NCBI GenBank assembly: GCA_951406725.2
Contig: OX597815.1
Location: 23,312,001-23,376,000, forward strand
Length of the DNA: 64,000 nt
Direction: 5' to 3'
DNA from: Octopus vulgaris
Taxonomy: Eukaryota
A program made the translations under genes and the position numbers. The notes under the pieces are model-generated. The model was not told the origin of the DNA and made no database searches. It saw only the letters and a list, made by a program, of their open reading frames with translations. Shown in pieces: positions 17,888 through 56,834 of this stretch; positions within the stretch are counted from its first letter, which is position 1; each line of letters begins with the position of its first letter.

Positions 17888-17920
<33 letters not shown>

Positions 17921-18078
17921 TGTGTACAGTGCTCAGGTGCACTACAACTCATCTAAAGTCTATATATAATCAGGTGTAGTTTCGGTGGATTTCGGAAAGC
18001 ATGAGGGCCTTAAAGGATGCAGTGTCATGGCAGTCAACAACTGACGCAGGCAGTTTATTCCATGCTTCAGCAACTCTA
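17888..18078 (-). mobile_element. 3' end of a CR1/L2-group LINE with terminal stem-loop and (TTA)n tail
   Basis: RVAEAWNKLPASVVDCHDTASFKALM..YT*, a short UTR, AGTGC-ACCTGA-GCACT hairpin and (ATT)n. Confidence 0.8.
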
Positions 18079-18348
18079 ATATATAATATAATATGCTAAT
18101 TCATTCATGCTCACCACTCTCATCTATATTTGAAAAAATTTATTATATGGTAGCACCTTCCTCTCCACCCTAACCTTTCTGTTTAAGTGGAACTCAAAGA
18201 AATTGATGCTGGATGATTGAAGAGGAGAGTGTCTGTCCTTGATTATTTCAGCCATGTTAGTCATACTGCCTCTTTTGCAATAGTTTTCAGACAGGAAAAT
18301 TGTTTCTCCTTCCCAAGGATAATGAATTCCATCTTACATACAACTATA

Positions 18349-46899: not shown

Positions 46900-48990
46900 C
46901 CTCATATCATCAGACATCTCAATCCATTGTCATTTCCTCCTTGAGGCCCAATATCCTGAGGTTGGTCCTTATCATTTCAACCCCGGTCTTCCTGAGTCTC
47001 CCTCTTCTGCAGGTACCAGCCACTTTCAGCGAACGGCATGTTTTTATGTAGCTGTCCTCATTCATACACATCTCATGTCCAAACCAACATAATCTTCTCT
47101 CTTGCATGCTACATTTGACTCCTCTTATGCCCAACTTTTCTCTCAATACATTTGCACTTTGTCGAACATGCACACTGATGCTGCACATCTAATGGAGCAT
47201 ACTGCCTGCATTTCTCTCCAGTCTACGCATGCCTTCTGCATTCAGAGCCCATGTCTCACTGCCATGGAGTATAGCCGTTTGTACATAAACATCATAAAGT
47301 CTACATTTCACTATTAGACAGAGTCCTTTTGTTACCAACAGAGGTAGTAGCTCTCTGAACTTCTGCCACACTATTCTTATTCTAGAAACAATACTGTCAG
47401 AGTATTCTCCATCATTGCTAATTTGGTCATCTAGGTAACAGAAACCATCTACAACCTCAAGAGAGCCTCCTGGGCATTTGAGAGAATCTAGTCCTGTGTG
47501 CTTTTAGTGTTTATTGTTCCTGCACATCTGCCATGTACAAAGACGACTTTATCTGTTAATCTACCTGTGATTCCACTGCACCTCTTATGTGTCCATAGTT
47601 TACACTGGATGCAGTGAATGGAATTTCTTCCAACTCCTTTCCTACATATTGAGCATGACCATTTACTTGACGGAGAGAGAATTGCACCTTCTTTCTTACT
47701 AACAACTTTGGCCTTTGCTAGTTTAACTTTGAGGCCCTTTGATTCCTGGTTTTGCTTCCATACCTGGAATTTCTTCTCGATTTCTGCTAAAGATTCTGCA
47801 ATAAGAGCAAATTATCAGCATATAGAAGATCCCATGGGCATCCAGTTTTAAATTCCTCTGTTTATGGCCTGTAGGACTATAATGAATAAAAGTGGGCTGG
47901 GAACTAAGCCTTGGTGAACCCCCTACTTTTACACAAAATTCATCACTGTTTTCATGGCCAACTTTCACCTTATTGACTGCACAACTGTACATGTCTAGTA
48001 CAACTCTTAACAAGCCACTCCTCTACTCCTAACTTTCTTAGAGACCACCATATAACAGAGCGGGGAACTCTATTGAAAGCTTTCTCCAGGTTGATGAAGG
48101 CTAAGTGCAATGGCTTACTTTTGGCCGAGTACTTTTCCTGCAGCTATCTCACTAGGAAGATAGCATCTGTGGTACTCTTCCCAGGTACGAAACCAAACTG
48201 CATCTCATCTAGTTCAATTCTATTCCTAATCAATTGAGCTATAACCCTTTCAGTAACTTTCATGACTTGGTCTAGTAATTTAATACCTCTGTAGTTGTTT
48301 CTATCTAAGGCATCACTTTTACCCTTGTAGCAGCTAACTATAATACTACTACACCAGTCATTGGGGATGGTGCCTTCCTGAATAACCTGATTAACTATAC
48401 GGGTGACTAAGCTGTATCCTACACCACTGGAAATTTTAATCATCTCAGCAATGATTCCTGATGACTCAGGGCCTTTCCTTGTTTTCATTATCTATTATGC
48501 TGCTATCAGTTTTGGTCCCTCAATTGGTTCAATATTTGGTAGACTCTTCTTCTCCCATTCATTTTCCACACTTAGTAATCTTTCATAGTGACACTTCCTT
48601 GAATCTTTCTTCTCTGAATCACTAAATGCAATTATTCATTCATACACATTTCTCACCCACCACATCTCTATTCTCTCTGATACACTGCTTTGCAATCTTG
48701 AACACCTCATGCCTCTGATCTTTATGCTGTAGAACATTTGCAAATCTCTTACCTTCAGCTATTCTTTTTGCTATGTAAACCTGATCCCTAACTGCCCTTT
48801 TGGCTACCTGATATAATTCTCTTCTTCCACCATTTTTCTAGTTTTTCCATGCTTGTCTCTTTGCTTTTATAGCACTGCCTACCTTCTTGTTTCACCACCA
48901 TGTCACCCTTGGTCTAGCTGGGACTCTGCACCAACCACAGATTTTGTCTGTAGCCCTCAGTAGATTGTCCTGCAGGAACTTCCAATTGTC
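46900..48990 (-). mobile_element. RTE LINE ORF, about 2.1 kb, degraded
   Basis: IPNDWCSSIIVSCYKGK..RGIKLLDQVMK..QFGFVPGKSTTDAIF, ILHGSETW and LCWFGH. Confidence 0.9.
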
Positions 48991-51548: not shown

Positions 51549-52826
51549 ACAAGGGTTGACTAAAAGTTCATAGGCTAACCAAGATACTCTCATGGAATGT
51601 GACCAAATGAAGTTTATTTTCCAACATAGTCCCCTTTGCAGCTCACACAATTCTTCCACTGGTGTTGCAGAGCTTGGATCCCATTGGTAAAGCTTATGTC
51701 CTTCTTGTCAAAAAAATAATCAAAGTAGATATGAAGTCATCATCTCTGCAATAATGGTTTCCAACCAAGTTAGGGAACAGACAATAGTCAGATGGTGCCA
51801 AATCAGGAGAATAGGGAGGGTTATTAACCAGTTCAAAGCTATAGTCATGGACAGCAGTCATTGAAACCAAGTACTTGTGTACTGGAACATTGTCCTGATG
51901 AAACAAGACCCCTTTTCTTAGTTTTCCTGGGTGTTTGGTCTTGATAGCATTTCGTAACTACTTCAGCAAGTTGGCATAGTGCTCTTCATTGATGGTGTGG
52001 CCCTTTTCAAGATAGTCAATAAGCACGATTCCTATTGCACTCCAAAAACCTGAGGCCATCACTTTCCCTGCAGGTGAAATGATCTTGATCTTCTTTGGAG
52101 CAGTTGAGGAGGGATGTTTCCACTGCATGGATTGTCTCTTGTCTCTGGTTCAAAGTGTTGAACATAACACTCATCATGTGTTAGGAAACATTCAAGGAAA
52201 CTAGCTGGATCTGCATCAAACACTGTCAGATTTACCCATAATGTGATCAGCCTGATGTGCTTTTGATCAGGTGGTAGAAGACGTGGCAGCCACCAAGCAG
52301 AAATCTTCATCATACCAAGTTCATTGTGCACAATATTCTCAACTCTCTCACAGGATATGCTAATAGCATTGATTATTTGATTTAGTGTCAATCACCTGTC
52401 ATCCATCACTATGCGGTGAATTCGATCAATGTTTTCCTCAGTGGTGGCTGTTGCAGGACATTCAGGTGTTGGATCATCTTCAAGACTTCCCCTTCTTCCT
52501 CCTAAATTCAGCTGCCCAGTTTTGCACTGTTGATAGAGTGTCATCCCCTATTGTAGCAACCATGTCAGCATGAATGTTGTTGGGGGGCTAATCCCTTTTT
52601 CTGCAGGTACTTGATAACACCATGATGCCAAGTTTTGTTTGTTTTCAAGAGAAGTTACAATTAGTTACTTTAGAAGTCTTCTTTGAACAGTGATATATCA
52701 ATTTACCTAATAACAATAACAATGTTATGAAAACTAATAACAATGCAGTTATGAATAAGACAAGAATTCACAGCTCTAGTATCACTCCTTTATAGTCAGC
52801 CTATGAACTTTTCAGCTTTCCCTCAT
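51549..52826 (-). mobile_element. Near-full-length mariner element (about 1.28 kb), decayed
   Basis: TIRs (AAAAGTTCATAGGCT / AGCCTATGAACTTTT); WLPRLL, THDE, HQDN and PPYSPDLAPSDY. Confidence 0.9.
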
Positions 52827-53967: not shown

Positions 53968-54675
53968 GTTCAATTTGAAGACTCCACTAGAATGGACGAA
54001 AGCGCTAATATATGATACATGATGTATAAAAACATGTAACATACAAATAAATATCTGTAAATATAAAACCATCCAAATTTCTGAGTACCTCATTTCTTCT
54101 AATATAAAATACCTGTACATCATCTCCAAACCTTCTAATATATATATATAATATATATACTAGTTCGAACACACTATCTTTAAGATAACATATTTTACAT
54201 TGTGTCATATATTTGTGCAACATATATGCATAAGTATACATATAGAATGCAGTAATTAAGAATGGAATAGAAAAGTCTTTGCATCTGATATGGAGTAGCT
54301 GAAATATTTTTAAACTCCATAGTCCGATAGTATTCACAGTCATCATATACTAAACCCAGTTTCATTGCAGTCTCGTTGTAACTATGGCAAACTACACCAT
54401 TAATAGTCCACATATCTTCAAATGATGTAGCTCCAGGAATATGATATAGTAAAGCTCTCAGATAGAATTGCTCTTGTTCCATTGGTGAAACAAAGTAGAT
54501 AGGCCCAATTGAGTGTGTATTAATTTTTCTGAGATGCCACATTTTCTCACTATTATTCCATGTGTAAAATTCAGGGAAATCATTATAGTGTAATGTATAT
54601 GCAAATGAGTTAGCTGGTGATTTCCAGTTAATTAGCATCCATTCAGTGAGAGGGGACCTATCATGTGTAAATAAC

Positions 54676-54778
54676 TGCTTCGGCAGTACATATATTAAAA
54701 TTGGAACGATACAGAGAAGGTTAGCATGGCCCCTGCGCAAGGATGACACGCAAATTCGTGAAGCGTTCCATATTTTTT
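54676..54778 (+). pseudogene. RNU6: U6 snRNA retrocopy 1 (about 5 nt 5'-truncated)
   Basis: TGCTTCGGCAGTACATAT...ACAGAGAAG..AGCATGGCCCCTGCGCAAGGATGAC...CCATATTTTTT; no upstream PSE/TATA (the flank is Helitron ORF). Confidence 0.95.
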
Positions 54779-54795
54779 GTACTTGCTTCGGCAGT

Positions 54796-54827
<32 letters not shown>

Positions 54828-54886
54828 GTTAGCATGGCCCCTGCGCAAGGATGACATGCAAATTCATGAAGCGTTCCATATTTTTT
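54779..54886 (+). pseudogene. RNU6: U6 snRNA retrocopy 2 (full length), abutting copy 1
   Basis: Starts GTACTTGCTTCGG directly after the T6 of copy 1; carries two CpG-type transitions. Confidence 0.95.
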
Positions 54887-54916
54887 GTTGTGGTGCACCT
54901 GAGCACTGTATACAAT
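54887..54916 (+). mobile_element. LINE 3'-terminal stem-loop fused to U6
   Basis: 28/30 identical to the reverse complement of 17919-17948. Confidence 0.85.
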
Positions 54917-56834
54917 AATTTCATTATCATTTTTAATATCATCATCATCATTAAAGTAAATTTATTGCTGTTGGGGTAAATGAACTGTGAGCTGTTGGAC
55001 TGCAGGATGTGAACCATGTAATTTGAACCCTAAAATCCTCCAGCCTGCCTCTGATGAGAATACATAGCAGCCATTGATATAATTTTCAATTTCATCTTTG
55101 TTTGTTGTGCATTGGTTTGTACACTAATATTGACTGTCCACTAATATTGGTTTGTCCACTAATTATGACCTTTATGAATATATTTGCTAATATATTTAAC
55201 TGATTTTACAGATGCACATATCTCTACATTACAATGACCTCTATATTTGACTAAAAAGAACGGGGAATATGGTACTACTGGACGATTATCTAATTCAACA
55301 TTAGACTTTGTAAATGTAAAACCATTATTTCGATGTCGGTAAAGTGGATTGCCATTATAACTGTGTAATGTATTTTCTTGAAAGTTTTATTAGTATAAAA
55401 AGTATGGTTGTTTTTCAAACAATTGGTTTAAATGTTATGTTTAAATAAAGTAATTTATAATTTGGTGTATGGGCATATAAAGTTTTGATCTTTAAGGAAA
55501 AGGTTCAAGTCCATTTTTTTGTAAAGAGTTTTAAGTTAAGTTAAACTATAAGTTTTCAAGATTTGAAATAAATAATGATATTTAAATTCTCTATGAGGTG
55601 GTCAAAATTTTTAGTCGGTAGATTGTAAATCTATTTATAAGTATAACATGTTTTTGGTGACATGTTGAAACAGAATTGGTTGTATTTGTGGATTTGGAAG
55701 TTCTGCATAAATAAATTTATCATAATGTTCTGGAGCTTTTTGTTATATGAACAACATATGACAATGGGGTAGTCCATGCTTTTGAAACTCTATACTCCAC
55801 ATATACCCTACAACCTCTCCCAAAACATTCTTCAAAATATCATGCAAGAGATCCTTAAGTTTTATGTTAAATACTTTGTCAATTAAATCTGGTCTGTCAG
55901 CTGGTGTCTGTCCTGGATAAAGTTCGTCTGTGATACTGGTCAAACAACAAAAATTCTGACACAAATGAAAATTAAATTATGGAGATGTACTTGCATAGCA
56001 AGTGACTTGATCTGAGATTGTGTGCTGAAACAACAATTGCAACGTGGAAGATGATTGTAAGCCATTTAAGAACACACAAAAAACTGTTAGATTCACTTCA
56101 ACATTTAAATTTAATTTGTGTCAAACTATTTTCAGTGCTCTGAATCCGTGACCTGTTCACTGACAAAATTTCTTGCTGCACCTAATCTGACCTTTCCGAT
56201 ATTTTTTTTCCACTGGATTCCCATGTTTTCGATGATGGAGATTCTGAATATGCAAAAAACTACGTTTTCAAAATTTTTAATTGTGGCAAGAGAAACATTT
56301 ATGGAAATGAACTTGTGCAATGTTATGCCTCTGAATTTCTTTTTAATTGTGATAATGAATGAAGTTGTTCAGTCGTTACCACCAAAATTAATTTCCTTTG
56401 CATTTTCTCTCTCTCTTTCAATATTCACTTAAAAGAGAGAATTTGTTGTTACCAACAGCATTAAAACTTTAGTAACGTGATCAATCTGTTATTGAACCAG
56501 GGTTTTAATTTCATTTGATGCACACTTTGCTATCATTTATATGGGGAATTGCAAGCGTGGCATATAAACACAACTTATTTTGATAGAAATTTTATGAGTA
56601 CATTTCTGTAAATGTTTTCCTTGTGCACCCTCCCACCTCCACATACATACACATATACTCACGTGGATACACATGGATGAAGTCCCATTTTGGAAGTATA
56701 TTAAAGTTTTTATTATTTTGGAATGAAGAACACAAACATGGGTGCTGAGCCAGTGACTAAACTTGTAGTATTTTGTTGGAATTAATCCAATGAATTGACA
56801 GCAAGGTAATTGCTTCTATCAGAATTCCTTTTCC

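Follow-up and report, generated by a model that had tools for sequence, protein, structure and literature searches.

Results

In the 64,000-nucleotide stretch of Octopus vulgaris DNA analysed here (the window), a U6 copy comprising nt 6-107, a second copy comprising nt 1-107 and the 41-nt 3' end of a LINE follow one another in that order, antisense within a Helitron (Table 1). The locus lies on contig C2 of a 2.8-Gb assembly of 227 contigs, and its structure is known from the assembly sequence alone. The initial annotation had described a near-full and a full U6 joined head-to-tail with no spacer, a description borne out by two adjoining Rfam matches at 54674-54777 (103.6 bits) and 54779-54885 (111.9 bits), the only Rfam matches of any kind at gathering score in the whole window. 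The copies meet without extra bases, six T close each of them, and they differ at three positions as well as at the 5' end. As in a U6/LINE chimera, the U6 is sense, its T tract is fused directly to a 5'-truncated LINE 3' end, and native U6 gene flanks are absent, the flanks being those of the Helitron. The cassette is a dead chimeric retro-insertion, and its product is most likely without function.

Table 1. The cassette, its Helitron host and related repeats, in window coordinates.
Feature	Position	Strand	Remarks
Helitron Rep-like remnant, downstream of the break (left flank)	54195..54675	-	translated frame, paralogues
Helitron-borne match to the element found upstream of genuine U6 genes	54598..54621	+	16/20, 78 nt before copy 1
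U6 copy 1	54676..54778	+	nt 6-107 with terminal T6; alpha gene type; A50G as in copy 2, plus C25T of its own
U6 copy 2	54779..54886	+	nt 1-107 with terminal T6; alpha gene type; A50G as in copy 1, plus two CpG changes of its own
3' terminal 41 nt of APE-RT LINE subfamily	54887..54927, maybe to 54931	+	hairpin plus start of ATT repeat
Helitron Rep-like remnant, upstream of the break (right flank)	54928..55300	-	translated only to 55300
3' end of sister subfamily of the same LINE	17919..18080	-	comparator of the initial annotation; same ORF2 C-terminus, shorter 3' UTR
tRNA-type SINE copies	11759, 18363, 28454, 43462, 43641, 60227, 61331 and others

The two flanks translate as one broken minus-strand frame, in agreement with the earlier view that the cassette interrupts a Helitron Rep-like frame. 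One of the four paralogue ORFs tested (L191) matches Pfam Helitron_like_N with an E value of 4e-18; a Pfam search of the window's own Helitron fragment gave no match. Of 42 Helitron matches, 19 were fetched besides the window. These are paralogues and not orthologues, and U6 or the hairpin is found at the insertion point in none of the 19, while 13 read ATAAC-ATG-TTCAAT across the site. The 30-nt tail might have been part of uninterrupted Helitron copies, a check proposed from the outset, and the absence of the hairpin from the site in 19 of 19 speaks against it. Judged from these related copies, the cassette represents a single insertion into an otherwise empty site.

The claim that the cassette has no U6 promoter holds in part: there is no TATA box in register before copy 1, but a Helitron segment agrees at 16 of 20 positions with the element found upstream of genuine U6 genes, at a distance from copy 1 that falls between the 77 and 79 nt of the genuine genes. 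Because several Helitron paralogues also score 15-16, this element is older than the insertion of the cassette. The reference for this comparison was drawn post hoc from two types of genuine U6 gene; over a background of 1.45 million positions, one scores 16 and 28 score 15 or more, and the match may have arisen by chance over about a thousand loci. Helitron coding sequence thus resembles, when read antisense, what real U6 genes carry upstream.

Past the second T6, the next 30 nt agree at 28 positions with the LINE end at 17919-17948, as first reported. This LINE was considered as donor and set aside in favour of a sister subfamily, which fits better: exact copies of a 27-mer that covers both hairpin and downstream AATAA number 5,332 in the genome, and over 41 nt the window tail is identical to this subfamily. 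All 30 of the copies viewed run on into an ATT repeat; two of these 30 are as short as the tail in the window, and the others share 59 to over 1,500 nt. Since the AATAA recurs within the 27-mer in LINE copies, followed by the ATT repeat, the downstream AATAA counts as LINE tail, and the suggestion that AATAA on both sides is a target-site duplication (TSD) falls. Any TSD is 2 nt or less, and the cassette enters after ATAAC. The 16-mer of the hairpin occurs twice within the window against a shuffle mean of 0.05. The terminal hairpin is meaningful because it is homologous to the LINE end and not because of its stability, which alone is not above that of shuffles (z -0.65).

A long copy of the LINE encodes an APE endonuclease and a reverse transcriptase (RT), with PF03372, PF14529 and PF00078 as its only families, and the same Pfam search found no RNase H family in ORF2. 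The donor thus has APE and RT, no RNase H, a 3' hairpin and a microsatellite tail. Its RT gives atlas hits to generic RVT_1 clusters, and from its C-terminal motif we take it to be of CR1/L2 type. Elsewhere, the window is dense in tRNA-type SINE copies, with 11 SINE-A heads in 64 kb, and contains RTE-like and mariner-like remnants at 47189-48491 and 51694-52391.

An 18-mer from the U6 3' end has 259 exact genome matches, of which we examined the first 100 listed; a DNA search for U6 gave 1,002 candidates, 40 of them scored. Among the 100 sampled 3' ends, 79 run into SINE, LINE or 5S sequence (63 assigned by motif, 15 by BLAST and one, L125, into 5S). SINE-type sequence lies at most 25 nt from the U6 end in the 63 motif cases, as a SINE head in 33 and as a short SINE-type tail in 30, and one insertion accounts for six of the 63 through segmental duplication. 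At least 33 of the 100 join the full-length 5' end of a SINE (25 A-type, 7 B-type and 1 C-type). Among the partners assigned by BLAST are an RTE-like piece (L117) and a member of the LINE family that supplied the tail in the window (L138). Two further ends run into U6, eight belong to genes, eight to inverted or shared-flank structures, and three are without assignment. The eight genes are L003 and a seven-gene cluster on C1. The cluster (L080-L086, at G000:C1:139.42 Mb) has a variant 5' stem-loop, and L003, on C2, is a single alpha-type gene; the gamma type was seen as retrocopies only among the loci examined.

Counted as exact junctions in the whole genome, U6 is fused to a tail 53 times and to a SINE-A head 45 times, with none in the reversed-pattern control. 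U6 fused to the LINE hairpin of the window occurs once exactly, again with a control of 0, and L007 is a mismatched second case. Solo SINE-A copies start ATA-GGCG, and the chimeras join at that start, with extra bases in 15 of 25. By gene type, 59 near-full U6 copies comprise 28 beta, 16 alpha and 15 gamma, and the changes that they share follow these three types and not a master chimera. Fusions of U6 beyond this locus, which the initial annotation had raised only as a possibility, are therefore genome-wide, and they are a population of independent chimeras, not a family. The U6-derived SINE-like family that had also been envisaged is contradicted by partners, junctions and U6 gene types that all vary: where a snRNA-headed SINE would show many copies with one structure and junction and the diagnostic changes of a master copy, the linkers here are variable and G50 is found in 4 of 235.

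Several features of these fusions deserve separate mention. A G-U wobble signature was considered, given that 20 of 63 linkers begin with C and none with G, but was discarded as solo SINE-A copies are equally biased. In U6 and 5S chimeras alike, four related SINE-type tails of ~50 nt (L034-L063 and others) have the same start, which lies 5' of a predicted hairpin, and for one tail type most solo copies sit in full SINEs; the common start is possibly a processing site or a protected footprint. Recurrent inverted duplications of 300-720 bp are centred on U6 at L123, L148, L026, L115 and L128, with one arm starting from nt 1-7 and the other from nt 56-67, and these are likely to derive from snap-back of cDNA via internal complementarity of U6.

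Capture is not confined to U6. There are 101 exact 5S/SINE junctions in the genome, most of which keep pre-5S trailers of varying length, and of the dispersed single 5S copies, each of the 11 viewed is joined to a SINE head or tail. The idea of a U6-specific capture system is thus not sustained, pre-5S being captured about as often. U2 was tried as a negative control and rejected: 20 of 30 fetched loci were viewed and all are gene-like, in a ranking that favours genes. These U2 genes (L236-L255) are dispersed over at least eight chromosomes, near-identical and with conserved flanks, and may be carried by a mobile element.

Multimers like that in the window are rare. Either search pattern finds two U6-U6 junctions genome-wide, so that a second dimer exists, as the proposed search for U6/U6 and U6/LINE-tail junctions might have revealed, but no frequent class. 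The other (L002, 1424-1628; G000:C1:187.75 Mb) consists of tRNA-Lys, U6 29-106, CT and U6 1-41; its U6 makes 1.1 turns and looks internally primed. The flanks of L002 belong to a host remnant, which we take to be Tc1/mariner-like, and are contiguous in distant paralogues; the tRNA-Lys trailer is unique in the genome. Two 5S-5S junctions were found. L297 (L264; G000:C25:5354954-5355202, minus strand) is a pre-5S dimer whose units are identical including the trailer, and no microhomology was found at its ends. A Penelope-like element that has a 413-aa open frame surrounds it, with the 3' end, inverted, on one side and the 5'-truncated body on the other (Penelope-like RT/GIY-YIG by an atlas lead, with no Pfam match), which suggests that Penelope RT captures small RNAs too. 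In L298, the much decayed units have a common trailer and one common change. There are also U6-5S-SINE trimers, at L299 (1408-1740) and L125, and a genome search for 5S-U6 junctions returned none. The trimers, with the tRNA-U6-U6 of L002, demonstrate that different RNAs are captured in series. Where the 5' end of the partner is known, the junctions have the extra bases CT (L002), C (L299) and A (L297).

Both U6 copies in the window carry A50G, which elsewhere is present in 2 of 233 exact matches, both decayed chimeras. Chance sharing of a non-CpG change between unrelated near-full copies occurs in 89 of 1,711 pairs (5.2%), and between little-diverged ones in 6 of 561 (1.1%). As some U6 gene copies carry private changes, a variant template may have been copied twice. 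An allelic or lost U6 gene with G50 is possible, and conversion between the adjacent units is another possible source of the shared change. Two further sources were discounted, namely a variant U6 gene with G50, since the two other G50 copies are decayed chimeras, and site-specific A-to-I editing, since A>G changes are no more frequent at A50 than elsewhere.

The 5' end of copy 1 has a fold-back form that is also found at four other loci; none of the five has gene flanks, and one has an 18-nt fold-back on the U6 5' stem. Recurring as it does at four single chimeras, this form looks like a primary junction, against a later deletion. A fourth U6 gene type that lacks one T was considered as the source of copy 1 and rejected on the same grounds (five loci, none gene-flanked, one clear fold-back).

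Discussion

We propose, with a probability of roughly 70%, that the cassette stems from one LINE-RT event in which the RT primed on its own 3' tail and made two end-to-end jumps onto the oligo-U 3' ends of U6. By analogy with known stringent LINEs, ORF2 would bind the 3' hairpin of LINE RNA and prime at the Helitron site, leaving a very short TSD or none. The copied part of the LINE is no longer than about 41 nt. The RT would next have jumped to a U6 3' end and copied to nt 1, and then jumped again to a U6 3' end, presumably ending at nt 6 by folding back briefly on the 5' stem-loop. The second template may have been the same molecule or another, and a template would survive an ORF2 that has no RNase H. 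The initial annotation had a LINE RT copying two U6 molecules in series. LINE-primed insertion and an RT origin are indeed most likely; the "two molecules" are unproven because A50G is common to both copies. We put the odds at about even between the same RNA as second template and another molecule combined with conversion or parallel mutation. An excess of homodimers would be one sign of the former, but four homodimers against two U6-5S and no 5S-U6 junctions do not discriminate.

These observations allow a further and more tentative proposal, one that we hold to be possible although we would not yet favour it: that an animal non-LTR RT re-copies one small RNA in vivo, giving rolling-circle-like concatemers from a linear template. 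The A50G-sharing U6-U6, the identical 5S-5S and the 1.1-turn U6 of L002 would be fossils of this process, and the hundreds of U6/pre-5S fusions would then be attributable to end-to-end jumping, and not RtcB ligation, as the builder of chimeras in this lineage.

Of the competing explanations, duplication at the DNA level comes closest, although we regard it as unlikely. One full U6-LINE chimera would have gained A50G, been duplicated by slippage on GT and then suffered a small 5' deletion in copy 1. This accounts readily for the common A50G and for there being only three private changes, GT at the U6 start and the tail start could guide the slippage, and the 5S-5S dimers likewise have matching units. 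Both breakpoints would, however, have to coincide exactly with RNA ends, and the left Helitron flank is complete to ATAAC. The recurrence of the copy 1 form at single chimeras, one with a clear fold-back, also argues against it, as do the identical 5S dimer, with its lack of microhomology, and L002, which simple duplication cannot explain. The earlier argument that the intact 5' end of copy 2 speaks against simple duplication is thus strengthened by the recurrent 5' form of copy 1 and weakened by the shared A50G.

Ligation before retrotransposition appears quite unlikely for the cassette as a whole. RtcB would have used the 2',3'-cyclic phosphate of U6 to attach a cleaved LINE tail, and would have linked another U6 to that one (unless the U6 was circular). 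Both junctions in the window, with six T and no extra bases, fit ligation equally well, and the fixed point just 5' of the hairpin at which SINE tails begin in U6 chimeras could be a cleavage site. U6 nt 1 is capped, and ligation would require a 5'-OH on it; a circular U6 gives no reason for entry precisely at the T tract. SINE RNAs carry a 5'-triphosphate and pre-5S has a 3'-OH end; if this end chemistry applies in octopus, the cyclic phosphate and 5'-OH of the RtcB model are not expected at SINE 5' ends or pre-5S trailers. In place of the cyclic-phosphate acceptors, 5'-truncated partners and clean junctions to which RtcB would be limited, the genome-wide set holds full-length SINE partners, varying pre-5S trailers and extra junction bases, which ligation leaves unexplained and which favour end-to-end jumping. 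RtcB ligation has been described for human U6/L1 (PMC6789731), where RtcB is reported to need a cyclic phosphate plus a 5'-OH and joined U6 to 5'-triphosphate RNA in 0 of 26 full-length products. The R2 enzyme, as described in PMC8857657, jumps in vitro with non-templated additions. The extra bases ahead of SINE heads may instead be leader from the source locus, and ligation could still hold for the U6/tail junction alone.

An assembly artefact that doubled one U6 is very improbable: the dimer is read from assembled contigs only, but three positions and the 5' end distinguish its copies, and comparable multimers lie on other chromosomes. A U6-headed SINE family with the cassette as one of its copies or its master is scarcely credible despite hundreds of U6 copies with LINE-recognised tails and the 'U' (19 insertions) and 'U-L1' (2 insertions) SINE classes that an octopus repeat annotation tabulates, without comment in the text available (PMC13282606), since the genome has one exact junction of U6 to this tail and two U6-U6 junctions, and since variation in partners, linkers, T-tract lengths and the three gene types fails the criteria given in PMC4494074.

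Whether template switching or RNA ligation makes U6/LINE chimeras has so far been argued from mammalian L1. The octopus genome offers hundreds of junctions at which the two models predict differently (SINE partners, pre-5S trailers, extra bases and multimers), and the question thus becomes testable by counting. Small-RNA fusions have been proposed as raw material for new SINE heads. The value of our findings resides in the genome-wide set more than in the single locus, itself most likely a functionless fossil.

Comparison with known systems

The closest parallels are the chimeras of U6 with L2, Mon-1, RTE and AnolisSINE2, 40 in platypus and 16 in Anolis, which the main text of Doucet et al. 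2015 (PMC4476161) ascribes to template switching, with almost no solo processed U6 and with short or absent TSDs in the L2-type chimeras. As there, U6 in octopus is joined to a brief stretch from the 3' end of a stringent LINE or of its SINE, and any TSD at the window locus is 2 nt or less. Unlike these vertebrate cases, octopus has two U6 units, many near-full U6, many full-length SINE partners and capture of pre-5S. That main text does not contain the terms 'U6-U6', 'two U6' or 'tandem'. A literature search covering openly available main texts found no U6 homodimer and no molluscan U6/5S chimera; the supplements of PMC4476161, PMC2104539 and PMC13282606 may contain either.

Mammalian U6/L1 chimeras, as portrayed in the text available of Moldovan et al. 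2019 (PMC6789731) and Law and Burns 2025 (PMC11838501), share with the octopus cassette a sense U6, 4-6 T and a 5'-truncated LINE; mammalian L1 is poly(A)-dependent and has long TSDs, whereas any TSD of the octopus cassette is 2 nt or less. Tripartite chimeras such as mouse B2-U6-L1 and WEIRD-MgSINE-MGL of Magnaporthe are explained by double template jumps (Gogvadze et al. 2007, PMC2104539, in the portion available), yet they unite three different RNAs, whereas at the octopus locus one kind of RNA appears two times and both units carry one rare variant. SINEU of crocodilians, in the account accessible in Kojima 2015 (PMC4494074), likewise places an snRNA-derived head on a retroposed element; it comprises U1/U2-headed families from master copies, and the octopus U6 copies are independent one-off chimeras. 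Tandem units of ~110-120 nt made from linear RNA by template jumping recall the concatemeric cDNA of DRT2 (PMC12039810) and R2 jumping (PMC8857657), as far as the available parts of these papers describe them. This is an analogy only, as DRT2 makes a programmed bacterial defence product and the octopus dimer is a rare accident with no sign of function. Altogether, the literature on vertebrates and a fungus already includes triple chimeras and fusions of U6 to L2, RTE and SINE ends, and what is new here is the small-RNA homodimers and a genome-wide set that bears on ligation versus jumping.
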